DNA from: Mobula hypostoma
Lineage: Eukaryota
NCBI RefSeq assembly: GCF_963921235.1
Contig: NC_086108.1
Span: 58,716,001-58,780,000 of the forward strand
DNA length: 64,000 nucleotides
Direction of reading: 5' to 3'
Both the position numbers and the translations under genes were made by a program. The notes beneath the pieces were generated by a model that saw only the letters and a list, made by a program, of their open reading frames with translations, had not been told where the DNA came from and ran no database searches. Positions 16,344 through 53,864 of the stretch are shown piece after piece. How positions within the stretch are numbered: the first letter of the stretch is position 1; each line of letters starts with the position of its first letter.

Positions 16344-16948
16344 GAATAGGGCCGAGAGGGACACTAAATCAGCCGTGATTGAATGGCAGCACAGACTCGA
16401 TGGACTGATTGGCCCAATTCTGCTCCTATCTCTTAGTGTCTTACGGTGTATTTATTTTCCATGAGGTGTGCGAACTTCTTACTCATCTTTTCAAATCAGA
16501 GCACTTCATAGTTAACTTGTCAATTGTATGCCCATTTGTCAGGTTTATTTATGCCTTACTATTTGGATATATGATTCTGAGCCTAATTAACTATTTGAAA
16601 TGGTTTAGACAAATAGTCCCAACTTCAATCTTTTACAGAAGTTTTGCCAATCTAAATAACCAAATAATGTATGTTTTATGGTCAGCTATTCATTCTGATG
16701 TTTGTCCCAGCTCCATTTGTTCTGATTTAAGTTACTTCTCTGGAATCACATCATTCTTCGTAAAAGGTCTTAATCCACTTTAAAATATAGTTAAAGGTTC
16801 TTTTTAAAATTTGGTCAATAAATTTTCATAAAGCTTGTCTTTTAATGCATTAGTTATGAAGTGATATGATAGAGATGTCATTCCTACCCCAGTGGAAGTT
16901 TCGGGAGTTCCCTGCATTTCCTTGTTTTCCAGTGCTGGTGTGGATCTA

Positions 16949-17123
16949 CACACAAAAGGATGGAGGAACTCAGCGGGTCAGGCAGCATCTATGGAGGGAA
17001 ATTGACAGTTGACTTTTTAACTTGACCGTCCATTTTCTTCCATAGATGATGCCTGACCTCTAGGGTTCCTTCAGCTTTGTGTGTGTCGACCCAGAATCCA
17101 ATGTCTGCAGTATCTTGTGTTTC
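16949..17123. mobile_element. Fold-back Penelope-terminus element, older subfamily, 14-bp TSD
   Basis: Inverted arms (...GGCAGCATCTATGGA / TCCATAGATGATGCC...). TSD CTG[G/T]TGTGGATCTA at 16935-16948 and 17124-17137. Confidence 0.75.
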
Positions 17124-17419
17124 CTGTTGTGGATCTAAACCAGTAGCAACATCAGTAGCTGTTAAGGTAATTCACTGAGTGTGACAATTGTTTGTATCAA
17201 GTCAGCTCTACTTGGAGACAACTAGTAAATGTGATGGTGAGATATTGCATAAAATTTACTGTAATTCCCTTGACACTTTCAAATACTTTTCTAAATATAT
17301 ATATCAGAGACAGTCTCTATTTTAGTAGCCTTGTAACTAGCAAATATAACTATATAGCTAGATACTAAATCTGTGAAACAGAGGTAGTATTCTTTCATTC
17401 CTACAATGAACAAATACAA

Positions 17420-18273
17420 ACAGTGAGGAAGGTTTTCAAAGCTTGCAGAGGGATTTGGACCAGCTGGAAAAATGGGCTGAAAAAATGGCAGATGGAGTGT
17501 GACAGACAAGTGTGAGGTATTGCACTTTGGGAGGACAAACCAAGGTAGAACATACAAAGTAAATGGTAGGGCACTGAGGAGTGCAGTGGAACAGAGGGAT
17601 CTGGGAATACAGATACAAAATTCCCTAAAAGTGGCGTCACAGGTAGATAGGGTCGTAACGAGAGCTTTTGATACATTGGCCTTTATAAATCAAAGTATGG
17701 AGTATAAGAGTTGGAATGTTATGGTGAGGTTGTGTACAGTTTTGGACACCAAATTACAGGAAGGATATTAATAAGGTTGAAAGAGTGCAGAGAAGGTTTA
17801 CAAGGATGTGGCCGGGACTTGAGAAACTGAGTTACAGAGAAAGGTTGAATAGGTTAGGACTTTATTCCCTGGAGCGTAGAAGAATGAGGGGAGATTTGAT
17901 AGAGGTATATAAAATTATGATGGGTATAGACAGAGCAAATGCAAACAGGCTTTTTCCACTGAGGCTAGGGGAGAAAAAAAACAGAGGACATGGGTTAAGG
18001 GTGAAGGGGGAAAAGTTTGAAGGGAACATTGGGGGGGGGGCTTCTTCACACAGAGAGTGGTGGGAGTGTGGAATGAGCTGCCAGATGAAGTGGTAAATGT
18101 GGGCTCACTTTTAACATTTAAGAAAAACTTGGACAGATACATGGATGAGAGGTGTATGGAGGGATATGGTCCACATGCAGGTCAGTGGGACTGGGCAGAA
18201 AAATGGTTCAGCACATCCAAGAAGGGCCAAAAGGCCTGTTTCTGTGCTGTAATGTTCTATGGTTCTATGGTTC
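17420..18273 (+). mobile_element. CR1 3' fragment
   Basis: KCEVLHFGR and LGLYSLERRRMRGDLIEVYK. (TTCTATGG)n tail. Confidence 0.9.
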
Positions 18274-18434
18274 TAAACAACACATTGAAATCTAAAGGAA
18301 TCATCATGTGCTACAAACAAAATTCTAAATGGCATTTACTATTGTAAGTGCTTCATAATTCAAGACTAAATAACATATGTGTAACTCCTGATTGACATCT
18401 TTACTCAGATGACATTATCACCATTCCTTAAGTA

Positions 18435-18705
18435 AGACCATAAGACATAGGAACAGAAGTAGGCCATTCATTCATGGCTGATCTAATTCTTCCAGTCATC
18501 CCAACTCCCCATACCCTTTGATGCCCTGGCTAATCAAGAACCTATCTATCTCTGCCTTAAATGCACCCAATAACTTGGCCTCCACAGCTGCTCGTGGCAA
18601 CCAATCCACAGATTTACCACGCTCCGACTAAAGTAATTTCTCCACATCTCTGTTCTAAAGGGATGTCCTTCAATCCTGAATTTGTGCCCTCTTGTCCTAG
18701 ACTGT
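18435..18705 (-). mobile_element. CR1 3' fragment
   Basis: SRTRGHKFRIEGHPFRTEM plus 3'UTR. Confidence 0.8.
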
Positions 18706-19684
18706 CCAAGAGAAACGCCCAAGGTAATCACCCACTGTTATACTGCATGGTGCCTTTGCATACCAGTTCCAATGTCTTCCAGTAGTAGGCTGCAACGTGG
18801 TCTGTATCTAGGCTCAGTGCAGCTCCACCGACAAACTGGAAACCCTGGCTGGTTCCCCCGATCAACAAGCAGCTCCCTGATGGGGTAGACCACAGCACGT
18901 GAAGCACTTGGAGCCCAGCACCATCTTGTGATTGTAAAAAAAAAGAGGCCAATGTGTCTGAATGCATCACCATCTTACTCAAGGTTTATCAACATTACAC
19001 ATTTTAAAATTGGAGGATCTAAGTATTGAACCAAAGAATAGGAACTAAACCACAATCATCCAGACTGAATGGGGTTCGAGAAGTTAAAAATAGTGATCAG
19101 GTTATAGCAAATATGAGTTAAACACATTTCATTTGTGATTTAAAGGGATGGCCTAGAGAGTTAAAGTGTACCACACCTTAAAACATTGGAGAAAGTATCA
19201 GTAAGTGGTTAGTTTTATTATTTTGATATTTGGGGGTCATATTTATTCCTGACAAGGGGTGGAAAATAACTCCTGCTTGGATAGATCAACATGAGAAATA
19301 CAGTAAAAAGCTACCTCGGCTGTGCTTAGAAGTCAACATTTATCTGAGAAAAGTGCAGGGTGATGTCAATTTTGATTAAACTCAACAGTACAAAATAGTT
19401 AAAAAATTATTCAAAACAGTCCGCTGCACTTGCATGAACAATTTATATAGTAAGTACAGGACCAACTTAGGACACAAAACAAATTGATAACTTTATTGGA
19501 TATATACTGCGTTTTCTCTCTCTCTCACACACACATATATATATATATACAATGTAATTAACACTCTTACAGTGACAATAACAACTCCATATTGAAAAAT
19601 ACATCACTGATGAATTCCATATGATTAAAATACAACTCTTCAAATTAAATTTTGGATCTGCATTACATAAATTCTGTATTTAAT

Positions 19685-21120
19685 TGCTGCAGCTCCTCAG
19701 GGAACTTGCTAAGGAACTGGAGCTGCAGCGCGATGACCTTTGGCATAAACTGGAAAATAGGAGCTACAGGGAGGTAGTCAACCCTAAGTAGCAGGAGGCA
19801 GGTACCTGGGTGACTGTCAGAAGAGGGAAAGGACATGGACAGCCAGTGCAGAGTAACCCCGCTTTGGATACTTTTGGAGGAGATGACCTACCGGGGTGGG
19901 GGTTGGGGGGGACCGCAGCAACGGGGACTCTGGCGCTGAGGATAGACAAAGGAGAATCAGTTGATGTTGTGTACCTGGGTTTTCAGAAGGCCTTTGACAA
20001 GGTGTCACACATGAGGCTGCTTAACAAGCTATGAAATTACAGGAAGGATTGTAGCATGGATAAAGCAGTGGCCAATTGGCAGGAAGCAAAGAATAGGAAT
20101 AAAGGGAGCCTTTTCTTATTGGCTGCTGCTGATCAGTGGTGTTCCACAAGGGTTGGTGTTGGGGTCACTTCTTTCTACATTATATGTTAATGATTTGGAT
20201 GATGGAATTGATGGCTTTGTGGCCAGGTTTGTTGACGTTATGAACATAAGTGGAAGGGCAGGGAATGTAGAAAGTGGTAGGCTGCAGAAGGACTTAGACA
20301 AATTAGGAGAATGGGCAAAAATGAGGCAGATTGAATACTATGTTGGGAAGTATTGGTTATACACTTTGGTAGAAAGAATAAATGCATAGACTATTTTCTA
20401 AACAGAGAGAAAATTCAAAATCCGAGGTGCAAAGGGACTTGAGGGTCCTCTGCAGGATTCCCTAAGTGTTAACTTGCAGGTTGAGTCCATGGTGAGGAAG
20501 GCGAATGCAATGTTAACATTCATTTCCAGTGAACTAGAATATAAAAGTAGGGATGTAATGCTGAGGCTTTATAAGGCACTGCTGAAACCTCATTTGGAGT
20601 ATTATGAACAGTTTTGGACCACTGATCTAACAACGGATGTGCGACATTGGAGAGGGTTCAGGGAAGGTTCACAAAAATGACTCTGGAAATGGAAGATTTA
20701 TTGTATGAGGAGTGATCGATGGCTGTGGGCCTTTACTTCCTAGAATTTTGAAGTATGGTGGGGGGGATCCCATTTAAACCTAAAAGTTTTAAGTTGGACA
20801 TGGAGAAAATGACCTCTGTAGTGGGGGAAGGTTAGAACCAGAGGGCACAGCTTCAGAATTAAGGAACAACCACTGAGATGGAAATGCAGAGGAATTTCAT
20901 TAGCAAGGGCACTGAATTTTGGAATTTGTTGCCACAGGCAGCTATGGAGGCCAGGTCATAGGATGTTTATGGCAGAGGTTGATAAGCTCTTGATTAGTCA
21001 AGGCATGAAAGGTTATGAGGAGAAGACAGGAAAATGGCGTTGAAAGGGGAAATGGATCAGCCATGATGAAATGCTGGAGAAGTCTAATTTTGCTCCTGTG
21101 TCTTATGGTCTTTGGTCTTA
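19685..21120 (+). mobile_element. Internally deleted CR1 copy downstream of the PTGER3 stop
   Basis: VDVVYLGFQKAFDKV, GVPQG and KPHLEY remnants, with a CR1 3'UTR. Confidence 0.85.
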
Positions 21121-21579
21121 ATTATATGTCACTGATTTCTGAATTATATAAGAAAAAAATAATTACCACATTAACTACAACACTATATGTGCAAATATTT
21201 AATATTGCCTTTAAATTGTACAGTTATCATATGCATATATATTGGTAACTTTCACGAAGAGAATATTGTTTAGATACTTCTGAATGCAGTTAGTCTGCAA
21301 TTCTGTATTAGACATAGAAGCATATAATCATTTTTTTAAAACTTCCTTATCCGTTTTGATGCTGCTGTCTTCTTCCCAAGTACGAAATTCCTATTTCATA
21401 TGAGCTATTGTTTGACACAAGACAGAGGTTCTCTGTCATTTCCTGGGTGTCCATTAGTTATGCAGTTATCTAGTAAGGAACTAAACTTTAGAAGAATAAT
21501 TAAGAGCTGGTTTACATGCACAGTCTAAAGTGTTCAAATTTTCCTCATCTTGCCGTCAATCAGGCTGTAAGGCATTGAT

Positions 21580-21879
21580 TTATGGTTGTTTTCTCAAATG
21601 GACCCTTACTTCAGCTGTTACTGGAACCTCTTTCAAACCCTCTACCGAGCAATTAGTAACAGCAGTGGCCACCTGATGTGCCTTCCTTAATAGGATTGCT
21701 CGGAGTAGCAAATAAACCCAGGGGTCAAGGATCTGATTTAATGATGCCAGTCTAATCGCTGTGAGGAGAGAACTGCAATTACTTTGCTGCTCAGTGTTGG
21801 AGATTGATGACTTGGCTAGAAAAGAAACGGAGCAGGCCTCAGGCGAACTTTTGATGTAGATCATTTTCAGCATCAATAC
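21580..21879 (-). CDS. PTGER3: PTGER3 coding exon 2 (ECL3, TM7, read-through C-tail, stop)
   Basis: Acceptor ttcctcag|GTA is phase 0. Encodes VLMLKMI...[19 protein letters not shown]...[10 protein letters not shown]...KQP*, matching EP3 TM7 ([14 protein letters not shown]). Joined protein is 363 aa. Confidence 0.95.
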
Positions 21880-21967
21880 CTGAGGAAGATATGATTAAAA
21901 GATATTAGTCAAAAGCAGAAGTTTATGATATAAAACATTATATACAGTACATACATATTTATATATA

Positions 21968-24019: not shown

Positions 24020-24720
24020 TGTTGAGGTTAGCACAGTTGTCTCACAGTTCCACAATCCAGACTTGATCTACTTTGGGTGCTGGCTGTGTTTAGTTGTACA
24101 TTCTCCTGTGACTGCTTGGTTGTCTGTTTTCCTCCTGTCTCCTAAAGACGTGCTGACTAATAGGTTAGTTGGTTACTGTAAGTTGCCTACAAACTACTGT
24201 CCCTCACATGCCCACTAACATTCCCTGATTCTCCAACTTCAGTGGGATGTTAGTGGGCATGTAAGGGAAAGTAGGTTAAAGGGAAATAAGTGGAGAATTG
24301 AGATTGATTGGATTGTACTGAGAGGCAGAATAGATTCAATGCTCTTTTTCTATATTATAAGGGAGTACAAGTAAGAGGACCTGAGTGCAATGAAATATTC
24401 CAGGCTCACTCTACCATTTGGGAATGACAACCAATGACAACTCAGCTAGTGGAGCTGCTGCCTTGTAGCTCTAACAGCCTGGTTTCAAACCTGACAACCA
24501 ATGATATCTGCGTAATTTCCCTAGTTCTCCCCCCTCCCCATTCCAGAGATACTGTACTGTATACAGGTTGATATGCTAATTAACCTACAGAGGTGAATGG
24601 TAGATCTGGGGGAGTTAATGGGAAAGTGGGGAGAATAAAAGAATGGGATTACTGTCAGATAAGTCAAATGGTTAGTTGATAATTGGTGCAGAATGGCCTG
24701 TGCCTGTTCTGCATGAATTA
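24020..24720 (+). mobile_element. Two decayed V-SINE-like tRNA SINEs
   Basis: Degenerate heads near 24022 and 24442. CATTCTCCTGTGACTGC...TTTCCTCC...AAAGACGTG core. Confidence 0.5.
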
Positions 24721-26004: not shown

Positions 26005-26745
26005 GGCACACACACAAAATGCTGGAGGAACTCAGCAGGCCAGGCAGCATCTATGGAAAAGAGTAAACAGTCAACGTTTCAGGCCGAGACCCTTCATCAG
26101 GACTGGAAATAAAAGATGAGATGAGAGTACTGTAAGCAGGTGGGGGAGGGGAGGAAGAGTACAAGGTAGTAGGTGATAGGTGAAACTGGGAAGGGAGAGG
26201 TGAAGTAAAGAGCTAGTAAATCTATTGATAAAGAGATAAAGGGCTGGAGAAGGGAGAATCTGATAGGACAAACAGCCATGGAAGAAAGGGAAGGAGGAGG
26301 AACATCAGAGAGAGGTAATAGGCAGGTAAGGAGATAAGTTGAGAGTAGAAAATGGGAACAGGGAATGATAAAGCAGAGGAGTGTGGGGCAATTACCAGAA
26401 GTTCAAGAAATCAGTGCTTATGCCAGCAGATTGGAGGCTACCCAGACGGAACATAAAATGCTGCTCCTCCACCTGAGTGTGGCCTCATCGCAACAGTAGA
26501 GGAGGCCATGGACTATCATGTCTGAATGGGAAAGGGAAGTAGAATTAAAATGGTGGCCACCGGGGGATCGTGCTTTTTCTGGCAGACGGAGTGTAGGTGC
26601 TTGGTGAAGCAATCTCCCGATCTACATCGTGTCCCATCACTATACAGGAGGCCACACCAGGAGCACCGGATCCAGTAGATAACCCCTGGAAGGACTATTT
26701 GGGACCCTGAATGGTAGTGAGGGAGGAGGTGTTGGAGCAGGTGTA
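26005..26745 (-). mobile_element. Penelope-like 3' fragment (GIY-YIG remnant + hammerhead terminus), in PTGER3 intron 1
   Basis: GVIYWIRCSWCGLLYSDGTRCRSGDCFTKHL and GHHFNSTSLSHSDM remnants, then a CT-rich tract and the conserved terminus. Confidence 0.85.
26068..26105 (-). ncRNA. Minimal type I hammerhead ribozyme motif in a Penelope-like terminus
   Basis: Minus strand reads CAGTC CTGATGA AGG GTCTCGG CCT GAAAC GTT GACTG. Stem I CAGTC/GACTG, intact CUGAUGA and GAAA boxes, palindromic ACGT stem III, NUH cleavage triplet. Confidence 0.75.
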
Positions 26746-26854
26746 GTTTTTTTCTTTCTCTGCTTTTTCTTTCTTCATTTGGGATTAAAGTAAACCACAT
26801 ACATAGAGATATACTGGGTGTGGGGGAATGAAACATTATCATTTGAGGATTATA

Positions 26855-26990
26855 TCTATAATTCGGCATCTTCACTAATCCGGCACCATTGGGACCTGAG
26901 GAGTGCTGGATTAGTGAAGATGCCGAATTACAGAAGGATCACATTAGGCATAATCAGTGCTGGATTATTGAAGGAACCGGATTACAGGTA
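26855..26990. mobile_element. MITE-like hairpin element (Tigger/pogo-like, tentative)
   Basis: TAATTCGGCATCTTCACTAATCCGGCAC / GTGCTGGATTAGTGAAGATGCCGAATTA, plus a third degenerate repeat at ~26956-26988. Confidence 0.55.
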
Positions 26991-27890: not shown

Positions 27891-28437
27891 ATACCTCATC
27901 CTAAAGGTTTCTCTTCCGGAAACTTAAAGTTATATCAGAACTAGTGAATGATTGTTTAGATTTGTAGAGACGAATCTCAAGAGAGGGAATTAGAAGTCAC
28001 AACTATCAATTGTGAAGAGTGCTACGAACTGACCCATGAAATAAAGTAAAAGTAAATGATTTGTGCTCTGAGCTGGTCAGGTGTGTAAAGTGTTAATTCC
28101 CATGGATATCTAATAGATTCACAGCTTTTCTGTATTTCCATCATTAGCTTAAATTAAAAAAGAGAGATAATAATCTAAGCCTACAAATGGCATAAAATAA
28201 TTGTTAATATACTGTATTTAGGAAGATACAAAGGGACACAGGAGGACAAAATGGTGCCTGAAACAATAGAAAATTGAGTTCAAAATGGAGGTTTAATCTT
28301 CTTCTAATCTGAGTCAGAGAAAGATAATTTAGAATAACTTATTTTCAGTAAAAATATACTAGCAAACATGCAGAACCTTTGAATTTCAATTTAGAATCTC
28401 AGAATCAGAATTGCCATTGTTTTCTTACTGTATACCA

Positions 28438-28542
28438 CATCGACTGTACCTCTTCCTAGAGATGCTGCCTGGCCTGCTGCGTTCACCAGCAACTTTGATG
28501 TGTGTTGCTTGAATTTCCAGCATCTGCAGAATTCCTGTTGTT
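28438..28542 (+). mobile_element. Single arm of the Penelope-terminus element inserted in a Rex1-type 3' end (host ~28390-28770, minus)
   Basis: Near-identical to 53560-53660 and to 33025-33093. Confidence 0.8.
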
Positions 28543-30953: not shown

Positions 30954-31505
30954 TTTAGGAGCGTAAATCACATCAACGTGACAAGTGTGAAAACGATGAA
31001 GATATTATACTTCTATGTGGGTTTATCAATTGTATGCTTTTGTTGAGTTGATATTTACAAAGCTGATATCCCCCCCCCCAACACACACACACACATCGAC
31101 ATTTTATGTTCGCATGCTTCATTTATTCAAAGTCTTTAGTCTGATCCTGCTGATGCACGGAAGGGACAAAAAGTTAATTTCTGTACCGCACATGCCGTCA
31201 CAATAATGTCGCATTCAAAATAACATATCGAGAAGAACTAAAATGCAAACTCGCTTTTGATAACAGGCGAATAACTAAGCGGAAAAATATCACTTCCTTT
31301 TAAGACCACATTATCTACAAAAGACATTTTGCAAAATGAATTTGGTTGATATTAAGACATACGATGTGCCAATTGGCCCAATTCTGGTCCTTTGGTCTTA
31401 AGGTTAGAAATCCTGGCAGCCGGTGTTGGCTGGACCTTGCCCACTTCTGAACACTAATAAAAATTGTTCTGTAAGGTATTCTCAACGAGGGTTCAATTTA
31501 CTCAC

Positions 31506-32297
31506 CAAGAGAGGCGACCAGCAAACAGAGAGCACACACATGATCCCCGATAGCTGGATCAGTGTTTCCACTGCGATTCTTTCCCATTGCTTATTGGAGG
31601 ACGGCACCTTCTTCCTACAGCGAATTACCAGACCTCGGATTGTAGCGAAGTTGCAGACGAGTGTGACCAGCAAGGAAATGATCCCCAGCAGAGTGAATGC
31701 CGAAGCAAAAAAGTTGATGCCCACGGCAGGCTTTCCAATATCGATGAAACACCAAGTACCCGGCCACTGTAGGGTGTACTGCCCAACGCCAACGACCGGC
31801 AGCAGGGCAAAGATCACTACGGCGAACCAGATGGAAAACACCACCAGCTTGGTGAGCCTGGTTGACACGTGGTTGGAATAATAGTGGGGTGCATAGATGG
31901 CCAACGTCCTCTCAATCGCCATAGCATTAGCTAGAAATAAGGGGCAGAGCCCAAACATGGTCATGCATGCGCCGAAGTAAGCGCACAAGTTACCCGATGT
32001 GTCCACTCTACTCCACTGCCGGTTGGCTAGATACACTGAAATGACGACGGGACTAATGAGAAGTTTGCCGCTCAGGTCGGTTAGAGCCAGGGCTCCAATA
32101 ATTATCAAGAAAGACTTCTTCTTCTTGTTCCCCTTCTTGTGATAGGACCTGTACGCTAGGAGCAAGGCAAGCGTGTTGCCCAAGATGCCCGTGACCATCA
32201 TGATGACCGGGAAGGCGATAGACACCGAAGTACATTGTTCAGACCCTGGCAGGGAATTGTTGCTGCTCCCGGAGCTGAGGTTAGTGTTGTTCCACAT
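31506..32297 (-). CDS. PTGER3: Prostaglandin E2 receptor EP3, coding exon 1 (264 codons, TM1-TM6)
   Basis: ORF 31482..32297 encodes a class A GPCR with prostanoid motifs (GILGNTLAL, LALTDL, MAIERT, ECL2 QWPGTWCF, CWSPLL). ATG at 32295-32297 has A at -3. Donor TTG|GTGAGT at 31505 is phase 0, at the TM6 intron position typical of prostanoid receptors. Confidence 0.95.
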
Positions 32298-32700
32298 CCT
32301 GCACTCTCCACAGGTCCACTGGCTGCGATGAGTAGAGATGTGCGGGGCAAAGTGAGATCATCACCGCGTGGAGGGGCTGAGCACAAGAGACATTTTCACA
32401 ACCCGCTTCACTCCTGTCGGCGAGCAGTACGGCTGAAATCTGGCAGTTCCTCAACCAATGAATTTAGTATTCGCTTCAGGGTTGCTTACGGCGAAGAGGC
32501 ATGCTCACCAACCACGCCAATCGTGTCTCGATCGATCAGAGATCAGACCAGCCATCGCTAGCTGGAGGAGTAGGGGGAAGGGAGGGCTGGGTTAGATCAA
32601 AATAGTGTATATATATACACACACACACACATATATTACACGCATATCAGTTTTAAAGTGTGAAGAGCTTCGAAATTATTTCTTTCAAATGCACTTACGA
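32298..32700 (-). promoter_or_regulatory. PTGER3 5'UTR/proximal promoter, CpG-rich
   Basis: Visibly CpG-enriched and continuous with exon 1. CCAAT motifs near 32455 and 32517. (TA)n(CA)n tract at ~32607-32635. TSS not determinable. Confidence 0.55.
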
Positions 32701-32945
32701 ATTTAAGACCAGACTAATCGTAAACAGTAGAACGCTGTATAAAATCCGATAGATGGTTCTGTAGCATTCCTGACGCATGTCGTTATTGGTTATTATAAAA
32801 TCTGGTGCTTTCTGATACAATAGTTTAGTTCTTTGGCGCATAGTTTGCGATTCTAAACATGGAGATGATTGCTTGGGTCCCGCTGTTGTGATTGTACGGC
32901 TACAATGCACTGATTTAAGAAGGAAAAAAAAAGCCCGAAGGACTT

Positions 32946-33092
32946 TAACAACAGGAATTCTGCAGATGCTGCAAATTCAAGCAACACACATCAAAGTTGC
33001 TGGTGAAGGGTCTCGGCCTGAAACGTCGACTGTACCTCTTCCTACAGATGCTGCCTGGCCTGCTGCGTTCACCAGCAACTTTGACGTGTGTT
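32946..33092. mobile_element. Fold-back Penelope-terminus element with 13-bp TSD, upstream of PTGER3
   Basis: Same arm sequence as 53454-53673. TSD GCCCGAAGGACTT at 32933-32945 and 33093-33105. Contains GGGTCTCGGCCTGAAACGTCGACTG. Confidence 0.85.
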
Positions 33093-33526
33093 GCCCGAAG
33101 GACTTCTTTAGTTTTTGTCCAATATAGACGAAAGCAGAACGTGAAGCATTTACTTCAGCGAAAAGTCAAGGTCGATCGATGATGCTCGTTCTCTTATAAG
33201 ATAAAACTGCCCCCGTAATTTTGGTAAATTGGTTTATTATTGTTACATAAACCGAGATACAGCGAAAACAAAACGTCTCTTGCGTACCGTTCAATACAAT
33301 ACAAGGTGCATTGAGGTAGCGAGAAGTCAAACAATAGAGAATAAAGTGCTACAGTACAGTGAGGTGTAAAGCCACAACTAAGCAGACTGTGAGATCAAGA
33401 GTTCATTCTTATATTCTCGGAAATCTTCAGTAGTCTTAGGGCAACGGGATGGAAGCTGCCTTTGATCCTCGTGTACGTGCTTTCCGGCATTTGTATCTTC
33501 TGCCTAACGGGAGTGGGAAGAAGTGA

Positions 33527-33660
33527 GAAACAGGGAAAGCTTGCAGGTGCTGGAAATCGAAGCAATACACACGCAGAGTGCCGGAGGATCTCAGCAGGCC
33601 AGGCAGCATCTATGGAAAAGAGTACAGTCGAGGTTTCGAGCCGAGACTCGTCATCAGGAC
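33527..33660 (-). mobile_element. Penelope-like terminus fragment
   Basis: TGCAGGTGCTGGAAATC...GGCAGCATCTATGGAAAAGAGTACAGTCG followed by the hammerhead motif. Confidence 0.75.
33625..33660 (-). ncRNA. Minimal hammerhead motif, variant copy
   Basis: Minus strand reads GTC CTGATGA C GAG TCTCGG CTC GAAAC CTC GACTG. Stem II is GAG/CTC instead of GGG/CCC. The stem III palindrome is broken. Confidence 0.6.
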
Positions 33661-33929
33661 AAAATGTCCCGGGTGGATGGGGGCACGTTGGCTGCTTTAC
33701 CGAAGTAGTGAGAAGAGTAGGCAGAGTACATGTAGGGGAGGCTGGTTTCCCTGCGGTGCTGAGCTGTGCCCACAACTCTACAGTTTCTAGTAGCCGCACC
33801 CGTGACACATCCGAAAGCCTTTCATGCAGTCATTGACAGAAAAACCCGATGAGATCAGAGAGAACATGCCAAATGTCTTTAGCCTCCGAGGAAGTAGTCA
33901 ATGGTGAGCTTTCTTGGCCATGCTGACAA

Positions 33930-40405: not shown

Positions 40406-40482
40406 CTTTCTCAGCCTGAGTTTGTTGTTGGGGTGTTTGAATCTGTTAGCTGCTTTACTAAGGCAGCAAGAAGAATTATTAC

Positions 40483-41099: not shown

Positions 41100-41871
41100 A
41101 TGGCAGACTGGTTTCCCTGCTGTGCTGAACTGTGTCTGTCACAACACTCTGTAGTTTCTTGCAATCACAGGCTTTCTATGGTGTATCAATAAAAACATAA
41201 TGTAAACTGTCCTCTCCTGAAGTCAATGACCAGCTGTTTTTGTCTCCTCCTTGTACTCTGACTCATCATTATTTGTGATCTGACCTTCTACAGTGGTGTC
41301 ATCTGTAAACTTGTAGATGGAGTTTGAGCAGAATATGGCCACACAGTCACAAATCTATAGGGAGTAAAGTTAGGGCTGAGGACGCAGGACTGTGGGGCAT
41401 TAGCATAGAAGAAAATAGTGGGAAAGCTGTTGCTGCCACCCAAGAAGTCAAGAATCCAGGTGTAAAGGGCGGGGTAGGGTTCCAGATCTAGGAGTTTCTA
41501 CAATATTCAGTAATTCAAGCACATTTGACCACAAGAGCTAATATGAACCTTATGTTGCCTTTGCCTGAGTAATAAGCCAAGTACAGTGGAGGAGAGTTTC
41601 TCAGATGACAGGACTGAGGAGAACAGATAGAAGACGTTACAGTATTACCTGTGCCTGAGATGCTTTAGAGACCACCAAAAGCACATGGCTTGGTACACGC
41701 TAAACCACTGGGGCAAAATGCACCAGCTCCACCCAAGAACTGGTTTTGAGTAGGCTGGCCATGGGAGGCAATGTTCAACTCTAAGGTATATGGCAGAAAG
41801 GTACCCCCAGCTGATGTAGTGTTTGTGACCATTGCTGGGGACTGATAAGTGCTAGTCCATGTGCTGACTAA

Positions 41872-42075
41872 CACACACAAAATGCTGGAGGAACTCAGCA
41901 TCTATGAAAGGAGATAAACGGTCAACATTTCAGGCTGAGACCCCAAAATGTTTATATTCCTTCATAGATGCTGCCTCACTTGCTGAGTTCCTCCAGCATT
42001 TTTCATATGGAGCAGGTGCCAGTCCCCAGAAATGTTTTGCTCAATATTTCTAGCATTTGGAGATTCTCTGGTCCC
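41872..42075. mobile_element. Fold-back Penelope-terminus element with diverged 16-bp TSD
   Basis: Arms AAAATGCTGGAGGAACTCAGCA / TGCTGAGTTCCTCCAGCATTTT. TSD TCCATGTGCTGACTAA vs TCCATGCATCGACTAA (12/16 identical). Confidence 0.7.
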
Positions 42076-43439
42076 TCCATGCATCGACTAATCGCTTGGA
42101 TCATTTCTTCTCTGTCATCACCTCCCACTTCTGTTTGGTTGGACTGCTCAAGCCAGACTAGAAATATCTCTATGATAACAAGTGTATTAGCCTGTAATGG
42201 ACGAAGAGCTTGTTACCATAGGCACATGTCTGGGATACAGAAAGCTGATGCAATTTATGGGAACACCTGACTGATGCTTCAAAGGTGGAGATGCTGCATT
42301 AGATAGCAAGCACGTTTTGCAGCTCCTGAATAAGATGAAACTGCAATTTGAACTGTATATCCTCGATCACAAATGGAGCAGCTACTCCACCAAATAAAAA
42401 GTTTTGTCAATCTGATTTTTGAATTGAATTAGATTTCATGAAGTCATGATTTTGTGGAGATATGCAGCACAGAAATAGGCCCCCCAGTTTTCCATGTCTA
42501 TGCTGATCTTTTTGTCCATGTACAGTAATTCTAATTGCCCACACTACTTTTATATCCTCCTTTTACTTACCAATCTGAATATCTCTTAAACATAGTGCCT
42601 GAATCCGATTCCATCACCTACTCTGGCAGCACTCTCTGTGTAAAAAAAAATAATTTCCCTGAAATCCCTTTAAAACCGCTTCCTTTCATCTTAAACCTAC
42701 GCCTTCTTGTCACCTAATCAGTATTTTATAAAGTATTACAATAAACAACATTCACCAACATTATATTCTCTGTCCCAGCTACAGCCCATACATCTTCTTC
42801 ATAACATTATCTGCTTGCGCTGCCACCTTCAGGAACCCTCGTGCTTCTACATGCAAATTCCTGTTTCTCAATTCTCACTAGGGTCGGTCCCACTGTTCAT
42901 TGTGGATGCCATACCCTTTTAAGTTTCTCCCACCACCAATTTTTATTGATGTACCATAGGAAGCATTCTATTTGGATGTATCATGGCTTGGGTTATTAAC
43001 TACTCCACCCACGATCACAAGCAACTGCAGAGTTGCGGACGCCACTCAGCACATCATGGAAACCAACCGCTTCTCCACGGTCTCTGCCTACACTTCTCAC
43101 TGCCTTGGTAAAGCAGGTCAAAGTGGTCAAAGTTCCTACCCACCCAGACATTCTCTCACCAATTTCCCCCAAACCCCCACACAAGAGAAGATACAAATAC
43201 CTGAAAGGACATTCTGGCAGGCTGAAGGTTAGCTTCTAATCCACTGTTATAAGACCATTGATTGGATCTCTGGTACAATTAGATGGACTTTTGACTGCTT
43301 AATGCATCTTATTGTGACCTTGCACTTTGCACTGCGACACTTTACTTTGCACTCTTACTGTTCCACCTTGAACTACATTATGTCCTGTTGCAATGGATCC
43401 ACCTGTATGGGCAGCAGGCAAGCCAAGTTTTGCACTCTA

Positions 43440-45670
43440 AACACAAGAAATTCTACAGCTGCTGAAAATCTAAAGCAACACATATGAAGTGCTGGAAGAA
43501 CTCAGAAGATCAGGCAGTATCATTGGAAATGAACATTAGCTGACTTTCTCATGTTTAAAATGAACAAACAGTTGATGTTTCAGGCTGAGACTCTTTCTTC
43601 AGGACAGGAAAGGAAGGGGGAAGATGCCAGAATAAACAGGTGGGGGTGTGGGTGAAGAATATCTAGAAGGTGATAGATGAGGCCAGGTGGGCAGGACAGG
43701 CAGAGGGCTGGAAATGAAGGAATCTGAAAGGACAGCAGAGTGGACCATAGGAGAAAGAGAAGAAGGAGGGACATCAAGCAAAAGTGATAGGTAAGTGAGA
43801 AGAGGTAAGCCAGTGGGGAACAGGAGGAGGAGGAAAGGGAGGAAAGGGAAAGATAATTTTACAAGCAGGAGAAATTGATATTCATACCATCAGGTTGGAG
43901 GCTACCTAGAGGGAATACAAGCTGTTGCTCCTCCATCCTGAGAGTGACCTCATTGTGGCAAAAGAGGAAGCCATGGACCCACATGTCGAAATGGGATTGG
44001 AAATAAAATATTGGTCCACCAGATGGTTCCACTTTTGCTGGATATAGCGGAGGTGCTTGATGAAATAGTCCCCGGTTTATAACAGGTATCACCAACATAG
44101 AGGAGGCTGCATCAGGAGCACGGGATATAATAGGCAACTCCAGCAGATTCACAGGTGAAGTGGTGCCTCACCTGGAAGCGCCATTAGGGGTCCTGAATGA
44201 GGTGAATGGCGGGTTGGCTGCTTGCAGAGATAAGTACTAGGAGGGAGATTAATGGGGAAGGAGTGATCCCTGCCGAAAGCAGAGAGTGGGGGAGGGGGGT
44301 GGAAGAGGTAAAGATATGCTTGGTGGTAGGATTCCTTTGGAGATGGTGGAGGTTGCGGAGAATGACCTGTTGGATACGGAGGTTTATGTGGTGGTTAGTA
44401 AGGCCAAGAGAATGCTATCACAGTTAAGGCAGTGGGAAGATGGGGTGAGCGCGGATGTCCATGAAATAGAGGAGATGTGGATAAGGACAGCATCAATGGT
44501 GGAGAGAGGAAACCCTGTTCTTTTAAGGAGAAGGACATCTGATGTCCTGAAAGGATGCAGTAGAGATGAAGGAACTGAGAAAAGGGAACAGCATTTTTAC
44601 AGGAGACAGGGTGGGAAGAGACATACAGTAGCTAAGATAGCCATGTGAATCAGTAGCTATATAAAAGATGTCAATCGACAGTTCATCTCCAGAGATGGAG
44701 ACAGAGAGATCGAGAAAGGGGAGGGAGGTGTCAGAAATGGACCAAGTGAACTTAAGGGCAGGATGGAGGAGGCAAAGTTGATGAAAACTGTCAAGCTCAG
44801 CATGGGTGCATGAAGCAGCACCAATGCAGTCACCAATGTAGTAGAGGAAGAGTTGGGTAGCATTACTGGGGAAGGCTTGGAACGCGGACTGTTCTACGTA
44901 GCCAACAAAAAAAAGCAGGCATAGCTGGAGCCCATGGCTACCCCTCGAAAGTGGAGAAAGTGCGAGGAGCTGAAGGAGAAAATCTTGAGAGTGAGACCAG
45001 TTCTGCCAGATGGAGGAGGGTGGTGGTGGAGGGGAACTGGTCGATTCTTTTATTGAGAAAGAAGCAGAGAGCTTTAAGGCCTTATTATTGGGTAACAGAA
45101 GTGAATAGGCACTGGACTTCCATGATGAAAATGAGGTTCTCAAGCCAGGGAATTGAAAGCTAGTAAGGAGATCAAGAGCATGCGAAGTGTTGCAAATGTA
45201 GGTGGGAAGGGACTGAAACAAGTGGGATAGAATGGAGTCGATGTATGAGCACGTGTTCAGTGGGGCAGAGGCAGGCAGAGACAATGGGCCTTCCTGGACA
45301 GTTAGGTTTGTGGAACCTGGGTAGGAGGTAGAAATCACCAATGTGAGGTAAGGGAACTATGAGATTGATGGCAGTGGATGTGACTCTAGAGTTGATGAAG
45401 TCAGTGATGGTGTCAGACACAGTTTTATGATGGTCCATAGTGTGGTCCTCTTCAAGAAAGAATGAAGTATGAGGAAATGTCTGAGAGTTGCCACCTGACT
45501 TCAGCAAGGTAGTCAGTGCACCACACTAGAACAGCAACCCTCTGTGGGTTTGATGGTGAGGTTGTGGTTGGTGCGGAGAGAGTGGAGGGCAGTGCGTTCT
45601 AAAGAGCAAGATTCAAGAGGAGAGAGGAGTGCTGAAGTTTAGCCGGTTGATGTCTCGTCGGCAATTAGAG
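43440..45670 (-). mobile_element. Decayed Penelope-like retroelement (RT + GIY-YIG + hammerhead terminus)
   Basis: Frameshifted ORF pieces FYLLPRFHKPNCPGRPIVSA, YIGDCIG (YIDD-like), LKFTWSISDTSLPFLDLSV, EEQQLVFPLGSLQPDGMNINF. Degenerate CTGAAGA...GAAAC motif at ~43570-43607. Confidence 0.85.
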
Positions 45671-45939
45671 ATGATTCAAGTTCTGCGCTGTAACTTATTA
45701 CACGTGATAATAAAACAACTTAAATTTACCATAGGGTTATCTCTGGACTGCAGAAAACTATTGCAAATTATGAGAATAATGACTCATGCTTTAAAGATGG
45801 AAATGCTGCATTAAACAGTAAGGCTTTACTACAGCTCAGCTAGTTAATTTGTATACCCTCAATCACAAAAGGCAAAGGTACACTACCAAAGAGTAAATTT
45901 TCCTAAACTGATATTTCAATTGAATTAAATTTCATAGTC

Positions 45940-46800: not shown

Positions 46801-48353
46801 TTTTATTTATGGAATAGTTATAAAATTGTAAATCATGATGAGAAGCTTAACTAAATGAAAGATTGAAGTAATGTGCAGCTAACATGCAAGTTATGCATAT
46901 GGTGTTATTTCTGTCTACTATGATAATGATCTTGGTTCTGAGGAAATGCTGCAGAACAAAAATGACACGCAAATAGCTCTTCGTTACAAGTGTATTTGTC
47001 TGTGCAATGACTATTAGTTCAATCAGTTATTTGTTTTATATTTGGGGAGATGCATAGGGAGAAGGCAACTAGACCAAATCTGTATGGGTGATTTAATTGG
47101 CATCAGCACGGAGATATGAACAAAGGCAAGTTTGGAGACATGCCTGAAGAATGGGGATAGAACTGACGTGCATGATCCGTGTAAAGAGATAACTGGAAAC
47201 AATAACCAAACCATCACAAGATTCTGACCTCGGAGCTAAAACATCACTTCTGGCAGTAACCACTACAGCAATGAGAATGTGGGATCTGTTAAAGACTGTT
47301 ATGTGTATGTTGGTTAAATGGGTTTTGTCAGAACAAAGCTAAGCAGATGGAAGAAAGATTCAGAGAGTTAAGTGTGCATGGTAAGACAGGAAAGGCAACA
47401 GACTGAAGACAAACTCAACTCTGTTCAAGGTCCTCCCAAGACCAAGGGCTGTTAACTACTTATCAATTATTTTCCATTATAGTTTCATAAATATGCAGTT
47501 TTGTTTATTATTGCCACATGCACCACATGATGCATCTGAATTGCCAACTAAATCTGCACCCACTTTTGAACATACAATATAGTAGTACAGAACAGGAACA
47601 GGCCCTTTGATCTACAATGTTGTGCTCAACTAATGAGAAATCAAATGCACAACCAAACAAGTCCCTTCTGCCTACACAATGCCCACATCCCTCTATTTCT
47701 TGCGTGTTCACATGCCCAAAAAGCTCTTCAGGGCCTCTGTCACCTCCTCGGAAAACCCAATCATTAGTAAGGCACGACTTGGCCTGTTTCAAGCTTCTGT
47801 AATTCAAATAGGGAAACACGGCACACATTAAGGTGGTCAAGGATTGGACAGGCAACCTTCAATGTAGCTTAACCAGATAAGAACATATCTAGAAATTGAA
47901 TTTCACCTGTTGTTGGTATAGAACAGAACATTACAGCACAGGCCTTTTGGCCCACTGTTGTGCCAAACTTTCAACCAACTTTAAGATCAACCTAACCCTT
48001 CCCTCCAATTTACAATCATCCATGTGTCTCTAAGAGTTTAAAATTCCCCTAATGTATTTGCCTTGACTATCACCCCAGCTAGGTGTCTCATACACCCATC
48101 ACACTTAAAAAAAACCTTAACCTCTGACACCCACTCTATACTTTGCTGCAATTATATTAAAATTATGCCCTCTTGTATTAGCAACTTCCATTCTGGGAAA
48201 AAATGTTTGGCTATCAACTTGATCTATGTCTTTCATAGATTTGGCTGTCTTTCATAGTTTGGCTATCAACTTGATCTATGTCTTTGATCTATCATCTTGA
48301 ACGCCTCTATCAAGTCACCTCCCATCCTTTCACTCCAAAGAGAAAAGACCATA

Positions 48354-48743
48354 GCCCCACCCTATTTATATACAGTCATCCAGTAAGGAGGGGGGCATGG
48401 AGGGATGAGGATGTCCTTGTCAACTTGCTCCTGGGGCTGGCAAAAACAGTCATCCGTGGGTATTGGAAACGGGTGGCGGAAGGATCTACCCAAGTAGACT
48501 GCCTGGCCATGTTTAGGGGGTATGTTCGTGCCCGGGTAAATATTGAGAAGGAACACGCACAGTCCACGACGACCATAGAGGCTTTCCGGGACTGTTGGGT
48601 TCCGTGAGAGGTAATTGCCATCATTGACAGAGATGGAAACGTTTTGGTTTAATGTGTATTGTCTATTTGTAGTGAAGTAATTGTGTTAGTCACTATTTTG
48701 TATATATAGCACTGAATTTGTAATAAAGATATTTTGTATAAAA
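48354..48743 (+). mobile_element. Tx1/L1-type LINE 3' fragment with 17-bp TSD
   Basis: SPTLFIYSHP...VLVNLLLGLAK. AATAAA plus A-tail. TSD AAAGAGAAA[A/G]GACCATA at 48337-48353 and 48744-48760. Confidence 0.75.
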
Positions 48744-48756
48744 AAAGAGAAAGGAC

Positions 48757-51700
48757 CATAAGACGTCAGAGCAGAATTAGGCCATTTGTCCCATCAAGCC
48801 TGCTCTGTCATTTGATCATGGCTGATCCACATAATCTTTCATGCCCTGACTTATCAAGAATCAATCTCTGCATTAAATACACTCAAAGGCCTGGCCTCCA
48901 CAGCTGCCTATGACAACAAATTCCACAAATTCACTACCACCAGACTAGAGAAATTCATACTCATCTCCATTCTAAATGGATGACCGTCCATTCTGAGGTT
49001 TTGTCCTCTGGTTCTAGCCTCCATTCTCTTCACATCCACTATTTAGGTCTTGAACATTCAATAGGTTTGAATGAGATCATCCCTCTCCCCCCCCCCCCCA
49101 CCCCACTCTAAATTCCTGCAAGAATGGGCCCGGATCCATCAAATGCTGCTTATATATATTAATAAGATTTCAATTCCAGAATCATTTTTGTGAATTGCCT
49201 TTGAACCTTCTCCAGTGTCAGTACATCCTTTCTTAGATAAGGGGCCTAAAACTGGTCACAATACTCCAAGCGAGGCCACACTAGTGCCTTAAAGCCTCAG
49301 CTTTTATATTCTGGTCATCTCAAAATAAATACTAACATTGCATTTGCCTTCCTCACCACCAACTCAACCTGAAAGTTAACCTTGAGGGAATCCTGGATGA
49401 GCTTTCCCAAGTCCCTTAGCAACTCAGAATTTTAAATCTTCTCTCTGCTTAGAAAATAGTCCACACTTTTATTCCTTCTAGCATAAGGAATGACCATACA
49501 ATTTACCACACTGTATTCCATCTGATTTGATGGAGAATGCACATGAAAGCACAGAGGAACATCCGGAGAAATTTCTGAAACGCCCGTCCACTGCTGTCGT
49601 TACTGTGTGGTCCGGAATCTTTCGGAGGGTAGGCCTCAAAATCCCCAGCCTTGCCTGCTTTTGGCAACTGAGAAGGAGGTTGAATCGTTTGGCAGAGATG
49701 CCGCTCAGTACTCGGTGTCAGAGAGCTGATCAGAGCTCAAAGATTTCCAATGACTCAAGTCAGATTGTGGTCGGCATGGCAGGGAGAGTTTTTCTTCTTT
49801 CTCCCGTCTGCGTGAGATATGGGACATTTGAGAAACTTTGAACTTTACTGTGCTGACGGACTTCTTCATCAAGTTATGATATTGTTACACTGTTTGTAAC
49901 TGTATGTATAATCATGTGGTTTTGTCAGTTTTTTCAGTCTTGGTTTGTCCTGTGTTTGTCACACCGGAGGAAATAATGTATCATTTCTTAATGCATGCAT
50001 TACTAAATGACAATAAAAGGGGACTATGTGTCTTCATAATCTAATCTAATCTATCACTTTGTCCATTCTCCTAACTCAAATCCTTCTCCATCCTCCTCGC
50101 TTCCTCAAGACGACCTGACCCTCCATTTATCTTCATATCATCTGCAAACTATGCCACAAAGCTATCAACTCAGTAATCCAAATCATTGACATAAAACTCA
50201 AAAAGTGGTCCCAACACCAACCCTTGCAGAGCACCACTAGTCATCAACACCCGATCAGGAGGTGCCCTTTATTCCCACTCTTTGCCTCCTGCCATTCAGC
50301 CAATGCTCTATCCATGTTGATAACAAGAGCCCATGGAAAGGTAAGAGCATAAGAAATAGGAGAAGGAGTAGGCTATCTAGCCCGTCGAACCTGCTCCACT
50401 GTTCAATAAGATCATGGCTGATCTGACCATGGACTCATCTCCACCGACCCGCCTTATCCCCAAACCCTTAATTCCCCTACTATGCAAAAATCTATCCATT
50501 CTTGTCTTAAATATATCTACTGAGGCAGCCACCACTACTTCATTTGGCCGAGAATTCCACAGATTCACCTCTTTGGGAAAAGCAGTTCCTCATCTCTGTC
50601 CTAAATTTACTCCACTGAATCTTGAGGCTATGACCCCAAGTTCTTGTCCCACCTACCAGTGGAACAACTTTGCTGCCTCTATCTTATCTATCCCTTTCAT
50701 AATTGTATATGTTTCTATAAGATCTCCTCTCATCCTTCCAAATTCCATTGAGTACAGTCCCAGGCAACTCAATTTCTCTCATAGCCTAACCCCCTTATAC
50801 CTGGAATCAACCTGGTGAACCTCCTCTGCACCACCTCCAAAGCCAGTATATCCTTCCTCAAGTAAGGAGACCAGAGCTGCACACAGTACTCCAGGTGTGG
50901 CCTCACCAGTACCATACACAGTTGCGGTATAACCTCCCTGCTCTTAAATTCAATCCCTCTAGCAATGAAGGCCAACATTCCATTTGCCTTCTTCACAGCC
51001 TGCCACAACTACAAACCAACCTTTTATGATTCATGCACAAGCACTCCCAAGTCCTTCTGCACAGCAGCATGCTGTAATCTTTTACCATTTAGATAATAAT
51101 CTGATCTTCCATTTTTCCTTCCAAAGTGGAGACCGTGCATTTACCAACATTGTACTCTGTCAGACCCTTGCCCACTCACTTAACCTGTCTATATCACCCT
51201 GCAGACTCTCCATATCCTCTGCACAATTTGCTTTTCCACTCAATTTAGCGTCATCAGCAACCTTAGATGCACTACACTTGGTCCCCTCTTCCAGATCATT
51301 GATGTATATTGTGAACAGTTGTGGGCCCAGCACTGAACCCTGCGGCACATCGCTCATCAGTGATTGCCAACAAGAGAAATACCCATGCATTCAAACTCTC
51401 TGCTTTCTACTGGTTAACCAATTCTCTATACATGCTAATACATCAGCCTGACTCTATGCATCCTTATTTGATAGATAAGTTTTTTTTTTAAATGTGGCAT
51501 CTTATTGAATGCCTTTGGGAAATCCAAGTAAATAATGTCTATCTGTTCCCCTTTATCTACTGTGCTTGTTGTATCCTCAAAGAATTCCAATAAGTCTGTC
51601 AAACAGGACCTGGCTTTGCTGAATACATGCTGCGTCTGCATGTTGGATCAATTTTTCCCCCCAGATGCCTCGCTATTTCTTCTTTAATTTCTTTGCTTCA

Positions 51701-53430
51701 TGCATTTTCCCAACTACATGTGTTAAAGTAACTGGCCTATAGTTACCTCCTTTTGCCTATTCTTTTTTTTGAACAGTGGGTGAAATTCGCCTTCTTCCAA
51801 TCTGCTGGGACTTACCCAGAGTCCAGAGAATTTTGGTAAATTATCACCAAAGCCTCAACTACAACCTTTGCCATTTCTTTCAGTACCCTGGGATAAATTC
51901 CAGGGGACCTGTCTATCCTTAGGCTCACAAGTTTACTCAGCACTACCTGTTTAGTGATAGCTGTTGGACTGAGGTCCTCTCCTCCCATCACATCCACATA
52001 ATCTCTCTTCAGCATGTTAGACATGTCCTCCACCATGAAGACCAACACGAAATAGTCATTCAAAGCCTTGGCCATTTCCTCATTACCCAATATCGATTCC
52101 CCTGCTCGTCCTCAAGGGACCCATGTTCACTTTTGCCACCCTTTTCTGCTTTATATAATAAAAACTTTCATTATCTGTTTTATATTTTGTGCTAGTTTAT
52201 TTTCACAATTTATCTTCCCTTTCTTTATTGCTTGCTTAGTGGCTCTGTGTTGCTTTCCCAATCTTCCAGTTTCCCAATACTCTTGGTGACTTTATTAGCA
52301 TGAGCTTTTAGTTTGATGCTTTTAAAAAATTTCCTTAGTTAACACACGGCTGGCTCTCACCACCCCTGTACTGTCCTGGCTTTTAACTGGAATATACTTT
52401 TGTTGAGCACTGAAAATCTTTTTGAAAGTCTTCCAGTATTCCTCAACCGTCCCACCATATAGCCTGTGTTCCTAGTCTACCCTTCCTCATCCTGTTGTTG
52501 TCTCTCCTGTTTAGTCATAATACACTGCAGCCTCATGTATGGCATCATGCCAATGGTCTCTGAAAATCCAAATACACAACATTCGCTGATTTCTCCCCCC
52601 TTTAGTCTTTATATATCTGAGAAAACCATTATCATTTTTTGTTATTGGCTAGCTTACTTTCACGTTTCATCTTTCCCCTCCATATGGCTGTTTTTTAAAT
52701 AAAGTTTCCATCTGTTGGTTTTTAAAAGCTTCACAATCCTCTAAATTCCCACTAATTTTTGTTCTATTATATATCCTCTCTATTGCCTTGGTTGGTTTTG
52801 ACTTTCCTTGTTAGCTAGAGCTGTGCCATCCTGTTTTTAAAATAATTTTTCTTTGGGACGCATCTATCCTGTGTATTTCAAATTACTCCCCAAAACTCAA
52901 GCCATTTCTGCTCTACCATCATCCCTGCTAGTGTCCCCTTCCAATTGACTTTGTCCAACTCTTTTCCCATGGCTCTGTAATTCCCTTTAATGCACTCACA
53001 TCTAACTTTAGCAACTCCTTCTCACATTGCAGGATGAATTCTACCATATTATGATCACTGCCTCTGAAGGATTCCTTTATTTTAAGTCTCTGATTCAAAT
53101 CCAGTTACACAACACCAATCCAGAATTGCCTTTCCCTTGGTGGGCTCAACCATAAGCTCCCCTAAAAATGCCATCTCACAGGCACTCTACAAATTCTCTT
53201 AGGGTTTAGCACTAACCCAATATTCCCAATCTACCCGCATATTGAAATCCTCCATGACTATCATAACATTGCCGTTCGGACATGCATTTTCTATCTCCCA
53301 TTGTAATTTGTAGCCCACATCCTGGTGACCGCTCTGGGCCTTTATGTAACTCCCATCAGGGTCTTTTAACTCTTGCAGTTCCTTAACTCTACCCACAATG
53401 ATTCTACATTTTCCAATCTTCCACACTAAG
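48757..53430 (-). mobile_element. Cluster of three or more minus-strand CR1 copies, including an endonuclease-region remnant
   Basis: DVPQGSVLGPQLFTIYIND, VADD, YLDFPKAF and VMIVMEDFNMRVDW. 3' ends near 48757 and 50345. Confidence 0.85.
49521..50052 (+). mobile_element. ORF-less non-autonomous retroelement, copy C (5'-truncated)
   Basis: Reverse complement of copy B body. Ends (AATCT)3. Interrupts a CR1. Confidence 0.75.
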
Positions 53431-53453
53431 AATTCCACCATTAACTATGTATT

Positions 53454-53673
53454 GCAAGCAACACACATAAAAGTTGCTGGTGAACGCAGCAGGCCAGGCA
53501 GCATCTCTAGGAAGAGGTACAGTTGACGTTTTGGGCCAAGACCCTTTGTCAGGCCGAAACATCGACTGTACCTCTTCCTAGAGATGCTGCATGGCCTGCT
53601 GCGTTCACCAGCAACTTTTATGTGTGTTGCTTGAAATTCCAGCATCTGCAGATTTCCTCGTTTGCGTTTTTAA
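53454..53673. mobile_element. Fold-back Penelope-terminus element with 14-bp TSD
   Basis: ~80-bp inverted arms (53455-53536 / 53553-53633). TSD ATTAACTATGTATT at 53440-53453 and 53674-53687. Confidence 0.85.
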
Positions 53674-53864
53674 ATTAACTATGTATTCTTCCTTCAAACT
53701 CAACCTTCCAAAGTGAATTATGTCACACTTTTCTAAACTGAACTTTATCTGCCACTTCTCAGCGTAGCTCTGCACCGTTAATGTCTCGCTGTAACCTAAT
53801 ACAACCCTATCTACAACTCCAACCCTCATGTCAATTTTAATACCAGAGAGTAGTAAAGCATTAT

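Follow-up and report, generated by a model that had tools for sequence, protein, structure and literature searches.

Within a 64,000-nucleotide stretch of the genome of the ray Mobula hypostoma (NCBI RefSeq assembly GCF_963921235.1, contig NC_086108.1, positions 58,716,001 to 58,780,000; the whole stretch is referred to below as the window), four short inserts fold back on themselves: E1 (16949-17123, 175 bp), E2 (32946-33092, 147 bp), E3 (41872-42075, 204 bp) and E4 (53454-53673, 220 bp). We hold with good confidence that these palindromes are independent, abortive and extremely 5'-truncated insertions of an autonomous Penelope-like element (PLE) that bears an endonuclease and a linker of the Neptune/Nematis type. 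As such, they represent the known PLE insertion pattern in miniature and not a separate ribozyme-driven family. As the route by which the fold-backs formed, we lean towards twin priming.

Structure and target sites of the fold-back inserts

All four inserts share one layout, in which a target-site duplication (TSD) is followed by an inverted arm, a direct arm and the second copy of the TSD, with the 5' ends of the arms facing the centre (Table 1). Each insert folds lower than all 60 mononucleotide shuffles of its own sequence, bearing out the four fold-back insertions that an initial annotation of this DNA had placed at these positions; for E4, folding reaches z = -22.8 against 200 dinucleotide shuffles. 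The TSDs are 13, 14, 14 and about 16 bp long and unlike one another in sequence. None of 600 random boundary pairs matched the TSD scores of E1, E2 and E4. The E3 score was matched by 188 of 600 pairs under a loose search, and by 30 of 20,000 once the repeat was required to abut both ends of the insert. All four mismatches between the E3 copies are transitions, three of which, as read from the sequence, fit CpG decay. The long TSDs of 13-16 bp that had been claimed for the whole set therefore stand for E1 (13/14), E2 and E4 and are weak for E3 (12/16).

E4 lies in a long interspersed nuclear element (LINE) fragment, which we take from its motifs to be CR1-like. A LINE paralogue at 7939-8023 carries the TSD site once, and when the insert and one TSD were removed from E4 in silico, the result aligned to 7939-8023 over 87 columns at 67% identity (E 9e-5), ungapped at the site; among the empty-site queries, only this one-TSD version gave an alignment spanning it. 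The empty site is thus that of a paralogue of the host repeat, rather than of an orthologue. In addition, contigs from four of 24 listed public sequencing runs (X1, X5, X9 and X10) were aligned to 52950-53950. The alignment of one X9 contig (depth 7.4) begins where the right TSD of E4 does, at 53674, and its preceding 95 letters are not element sequence; this fits an empty orthologous E4 site, although the contig may instead derive from a paralogous LINE copy, and no joint skipping the element was listed. Contigs from X1 and X5 over 53647-53950 enter E4 by 27 letters only, below our 31-letter bridging rule.

Every insert pairs one arm that carries a tail of 34-40 nt with one that lacks it. Numbered relative to the predicted cut site of a hammerhead ribozyme motif described below, the outer ends fall at +63 to +71 in tail-less arms and at about +97 to +110 in tailed ones. 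It had been proposed that one arm of each insert is complete and the other truncated. This did not hold up: both arms are 5'-truncated, what sets their outer ends apart is the tail, and the shorter arm of E2 is the one that carries it. Sequence upstream of the predicted cut is present in seven of the eight arms, all seven of which end no more than 29 nt upstream of it. Since cleaved RNA could not template that part, the template RNA was presumably uncleaved and, for the same reason, the inserts do not predict RNAs ending at the GUC/GUU site.

None of the four fold-backs retains a complete hammerhead (full core plus stem I). E2 and E4 have a near-complete core with only two of five stem I pairs, the full core is absent from E1 and E3, and in the folding of E4 the hammerhead region sits inside a long hairpin. 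The label "ribozyme-associated" is therefore apt by descent, though not by what the inserts keep. Similarly, the arms had been described as meeting at the hammerhead motif, which fails for E2, whose tailed arm ends 40 nt short of the predicted cut, on its downstream side.

The centre junctions of the four inserts are all unlike, with none of the six possible pairs sharing one. At the E2 junction four exact letters are common to the two arms (7/8 if one mismatch is allowed) and at that of E3 about three, while no clear overlap between arms was seen at the junctions of E1 and E4. The first seven letters of the right TSD of E2 could also pair with element RNA just past the end of the tail-less arm (five matches, two wobbles); both this pairing and the sharing at the E2 junction were noticed after the fact. 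As a separate observation, the tailed arm of E3 contains about 25-30 nt of unrelated sequence at 42005-42034, for which no source was found within the window.

The parent Penelope-like element and its arm subfamilies

The arm is the 3' terminus of an endonuclease-bearing PLE, as seen directly for the older of two arm subfamilies. The window holds ten arm-bearing loci: the four fold-backs, three single arms and three ends of PLE bodies (Table 1). A search for TSDs at the six loci with one arm gave nothing convincing. The three bodies match proteins P0001 and P0008 (tblastn, E 1.9e-60 to 1e-5), whose own matches to the Pfam families GIY-YIG (E 5e-4) and RVT_1 (E 1e-4) fall short of the Pfam cut-offs. 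A Pfam search with two of the window's PLE remnants returned no family, and their identity comes via homologues; the nearest named relatives of the window's retroelement protein are from Mobula hypostoma and Hypanus sabinus. A PLE feature described in PMC8557442 is present at 26552-26686 and in P0001. The CX2-5CxxC linker between the reverse transcriptase (RT) and the endonuclease, a cysteine motif common to Neptune and Nematis PLEs (PMC8557442), is found in P0001 and in part in the remnant near 11200. The Penelope-like origin that had been suggested for the inserts is thereby upheld, with the arm ending three bodies with RT/GIY-YIG matches in the same window.

On the coding strand, the PLE body is followed by the hammerhead, about 65 nt and the tail. 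The best-kept predicted hammerhead, at 26075-26100 on the minus strand, has both conserved boxes, five of five stem I pairs and four of four stem II pairs, and one near 33657 is nearly as well kept, so that the minimal hammerhead previously noted in the parent terminus could be recovered. It agrees with the minimal kind described in metazoan PLEs (Cervera and De la Pena 2014, PMC4209133): as in those motifs, the conserved boxes are there, stem I has 5 bp, stem II is preceded by an extra base, and stem III is palindromic, two pairs long and loopless. The fold-backs, by contrast, retain hammerhead parts only. The same paper notes opposite-strand pairs of minimal hammerheads 100-700 bp apart and reports no in vitro cleavage by single ones. 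An Rfam search up to E = 5 gave 11 matches, none of which reached the gathering score or was a hammerhead, and short hammerhead pieces folded freely did not adopt the catalytic fold, as expected for a motif without a stem III loop. Separately, in one pair of copies, the hammerheads at 33622-33667 (minus strand) and at 26100, stem II is altered on both sides in a way that preserves pairing.

The two arm subfamilies that had been noted are well separated. Younger arms (E2, E4 and the single copy at 28437) agree with one another at 57-60 of 61 core columns, and at 21-22 of 22 columns over the short E2 overlap, versus 33-49 of about 60 columns with other copies. All three PLE bodies end in the older arm, which matches E1 and E3 and not E2 and E4. 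The tail sequences of E2 and E4 also differ. Summed contig depth, which is no measure of copy number, was 9.3 million in X1, 5.5 million in X5, 1.6 million in X9 and 734 in X10 at 53473, a position typical of the younger arm, while depth in the tail bin was high in all four runs. We infer that the younger subfamily spread after the split of the lineage of the X10 organism. The abundance of the younger arm in X1, X5 and X9 and its near absence from X10 may help to date the burst.

Table 1. Target-site duplications, arms and parent-element loci in the window. Arm positions are relative to the predicted hammerhead cut.
Feature	Position	Strand	Details
E1 left TSD	16935..16948	+	13/14 against right copy, 10 exact
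E1 tail-less arm	16949..17016	-	older subfamily; about -3 (to -7) to +63
E1 tailed arm	17021..17123	+	about -3 to +97
E1 right TSD	17124..17137	+	pairs with left copy, 13/14
E2 left TSD	32933..32945	+	13/13
E2 tailed arm	32946..33007	-	younger subfamily; +40 to about +100; hammerhead not reached
E2 tail-less arm	33004..33092	+	-24 to +65
E2 right TSD	33093..33105	+	13/13 against left copy
E3 left candidate TSD	41856..41871	+	12/16 against right copy
E3 tail-less arm	41872..41943	-	older subfamily; -20 to about +63; internal 12-nt deletion
E3 tailed arm	41941..42075	+	start near -11 (by eye); unrelated insert of about 25-30 nt
E3 right candidate TSD	42076..42091	+	12/16 against left copy
E4 left TSD	53440..53453	+	14/14; within old LINE fragment
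E4 tail-less arm	53454..53553	-	younger subfamily; -29 to +71; decayed hammerhead core, stem I 2/5 pairs
E4 tailed arm	53554..53673	+	-10 to +110
E4 right TSD	53674..53687	+	14/14 against left copy
Decayed PLE body (RT, thumb, GIY-YIG region)	43439..45711	-	ends in older arm with tail
PLE 3' remnant (GIY-YIG piece)	26008..26745	-	best-kept minimal hammerhead; tail-less end
PLE 3' remnant, interrupted by another repeat	10947..12728	+	ends in decayed hammerhead and tailed arm
Single tailed arm, younger subfamily	28437..28542	+	begins 5 nt before predicted cut; no clear TSD
Single tailed arm, near-complete hammerhead	33528..33664	-	stem I 4/5, stem II 4/4; no TSD found
Single arm, strongly decayed	4962..5086	-	arm match

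Formation of the fold-backs

In PLE insertions, an inverted 5'-truncated copy and a one-sided tail of 30-40 bp are typical (PMC8557442, PMC8969392), and those of rotifers have inverted ends, a 31-bp tail and TSDs of 8-10 bp (PMC3846280). The fold-backs share with endonuclease-bearing PLEs (Craig et al. 2021, PMC8557442; Arkhipova et al. 2013, PMC3846280) the head-to-head inverted terminal copies, the tail at one end, a TSD around the whole unit and strong 5' truncation, and differ from them in measuring only 147-220 bp, in having no coding sequence and in their TSDs of 13-16 bp, against 8-10 bp in rotifers. The PLE protein studied by Frangieh et al. (2024, PMC11167929), that of the Poseidon element PAc of Anolis carolinensis, cuts and extends both strands, is predicted to form a dimer and uses mainly uncleaved RNA as substrate, with two internal RNA start sites that bound the tail. 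As in the ray element, the hammerhead of PAc lies upstream of two preferred 3' ends; unlike the ray element, whose relatives have the extra cysteine linker of Neptune and Nematis and whose E2 target is GC-rich, PAc belongs to the Penelope/Poseidon clade and has AT-rich targets. Among the papers listed by literature searches, from which most subscription articles were absent, none was seen to describe short palindromic inserts of PLEs in cartilaginous fish.

As the arm forms the 3' terminus of the autonomous element itself, truncation in cis suffices to produce such inserts. The GIY-YIG endonuclease would make a staggered cut with its two nicks 13-16 nt apart, and uncleaved element RNA would be reverse-transcribed from both 3' ends of the target, one end priming at the distal (tailed) site and the other at the proximal (tail-less) site. 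Both complementary DNAs (cDNAs) would stop early, after about 60-120 nt, and be joined, in many cases at short stretches of complementarity, several of which could come from the self-complementary stems of the hammerhead; the resulting inserts, with an incomplete hammerhead, would be dead on arrival. In the twin priming of L1 elements, both target ends likewise prime reverse transcription, and the 5' inversion is joined by microhomology. In L1, however, the inverted segment is mostly a continuation of the direct one, whereas here both arms begin close to one 3' end, so that 25-70 nt or more are present twice.

The sequencing-run contigs provide a wider sample of arm ends and junctions. The numbers aligned in the four runs were 77,493, 54,382, 34,773 and 24,585, which include the LINE flanks and are not copy numbers. 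In X1, departures from the arm into mixed flanks were counted at +69 (at least 142 contigs) and near +98 (at least 416), matching the two arm ends seen in the window. Left-arm-to-right-arm junctions number 13 among those listed; all differ, with ends from -29 to +74. For six of them counts were given, each being one contig per run, and just one of the six occurs in two runs. No junction is dominant among those listed, and none of the 32 contig pieces listed spans the E4 junction. An apparent truncation hotspot, suggested by a roughly eightfold fall in depth over the hammerhead bin, was rejected, as a private mismatch at 53591 alone lowers depth about sixfold. A metagenome scan with a 20-nt arm motif gave 32 loci; the blast lines listed span 20-32 letters, and we treated them as chance matches.

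Several points weigh against reading the inserts as truncated PLE insertions made by twin priming. Only four elements were dissected, and if arms paired at random, all four would show one arm of each type with a probability of 1 in 8 to 1 in 16. The E3 TSD is weak, and that it is genuine is plausible rather than proven. The TSDs of all four exceed the 8-10 bp of PMC3846280, and the AT-rich target and non-target-homologous start site of PMC11167929 differ from the GC-rich, partly complementary TSD of E2. No body in the window is attached to the younger arm of E2 and E4, whose link to a body rests on the at least 354 X1 contigs that continue past -29, beyond the end of the hammerhead, into mixed sequence. 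Deletion at the centre of a palindrome after insertion can also vary junctions. Finally, contigs break in high-copy palindromes, so that a moderately amplified fixed junction could be missed, and the junctions listed are a fraction, with a further 660 joints and 246 between-letter rows in existence.

A real, though lesser, possibility is self-priming, a variant of the reading above whose probability overlaps with it. Here one cDNA (or an antisense template) would fold back at the hammerhead stem or palindrome and copy the inverted arm, after which the endonuclease would resolve the intermediate, leaving a one-sided tail, and later deletions at the centre would make the junctions uneven. Self-priming has been proposed for head-to-head PLE repeats (PMC3846280) and resolution by the endonuclease for the tail (PMC8557442), and the E1 junction, near-symmetric at the palindromic cut region, as well as the close likeness of the two E4 arms (60/61 core columns) would suit it. 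However, arms within an element are no closer to one another than to other copies: the E4 arms match the single copy at 28437 equally well (60/61), and the E1 arms agree at 48/63 positions, against 50/63 between the short arm of E1 and the PLE at 26008-26745. Clustering of arm pairs likewise gave no clear sign of a common template for both arms of one element. Because each arm of E2 contains sequence that its partner lacks, E2 favours twin priming over simple self-priming, which would need a later deletion; such a central deletion would give E2 the same picture.

It had also been proposed that the inserts form a non-autonomous palindromic family, in which each palindrome is transcribed whole and the PLE protein mobilises it in trans. 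Fold-backs do account for four of the ten loci with an arm in the window, PLE derivatives that are non-autonomous have been described, as has mobilisation in trans between pLTRs (PMC8557442, PMC3846280, bioRxiv 10.64898/2026.07.22.740005), and the contig test has the blind spots mentioned above. We nevertheless consider such a family improbable: neither the four inserts nor the 13 listed contig junctions point to a shared centre, the tails of E2 and E4 are unlike, no insert has a complete hammerhead, and truncation in cis is enough. The tabulation of junctions, TSDs and arm asymmetry that had been suggested genome-wide was made for the four window inserts, where all junctions differ and the tail is one-sided. 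The inserts resemble the non-LTR retrozymes of animals, reported in one chondrichthyan (bioRxiv 10.64898/2026.07.22.740005), in being short, non-coding, derived from a PLE terminus and linked to hammerheads. That identity was rejected, however, as a retrozyme consists of units repeated head to tail, each with its complete hammerhead, whereas the inserts are head-to-head and none has one. A miniature inverted-repeat transposable element (MITE) of a DNA transposon, which size and palindromic shape alone would suggest, is hardly tenable given the asymmetric ends with a 34-40-nt tail on one side and the unlike TSDs of 13-16 bp, and is refuted by the place of the arm, singly, at the 3' end of RT/GIY-YIG bodies; the earlier preference for a retroelement over a MITE was well founded.

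More tentatively, the hammerhead itself might take part in PLE integration. Left uncleaved, it could serve as a site at which synthesis stops and products are joined, with a protein dimer priming from the two target ends at the two different RT start sites, both cDNAs stalling within the hammerhead and its self-complementary stems allowing them to anneal. The clustering of seven of the eight window arm ends within 29 nt upstream of the cut and the pairing of a tailed with a tail-less arm in all four inserts speak for such a role, which we nonetheless think rather unlikely; against it, only six of the 26 ends in the 13 listed contig junctions lie upstream of the cut, in a sample biased by the easier assembly of asymmetric forms.

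Genomic neighbourhood and significance

The window has a GC content of 41%, is rich in LINE fragments and holds one exon of a prostaglandin E2 receptor EP3-like gene (31482-32300, minus strand, E 2e-96). E2 lies about 650 bp upstream of the likely start codon of this gene, and the single arm at 33528-33664 about 430 bp further. An uninterrupted 700-codon LINE reverse transcriptase frame was found at 14151-16253 (Pfam RVT_1, E 1e-30), with many decayed relatives in the window. Two palindromes are unrelated to the arm: an imperfect one of about 100 bp at 24183-24285, with sub-threshold microRNA matches only, and one of 80 bp at 26855-26934, immediately past the 5' terminus of the 26008-26745 PLE remnant, which is possibly a separate short inverted-repeat element.

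Fold-back inserts of this kind resemble MITEs or microRNA hairpins and may be mislabelled as such; E2 itself has sub-threshold Rfam microRNA matches. The literature describes the origin of the inverted ends of PLEs as open. The arm is very abundant, with tens of thousands of contigs per run (LINE flanks included), so that a single long-read assembly, with its junctions, tails and TSDs tabulated, could decide between twin priming and self-priming. If the uncleaved hammerhead does act as the site at which synthesis stops and products are joined, the many short fold-backs of rays would be a genome-wide in vivo record of how the inverted ends and tails of PLEs are formed.

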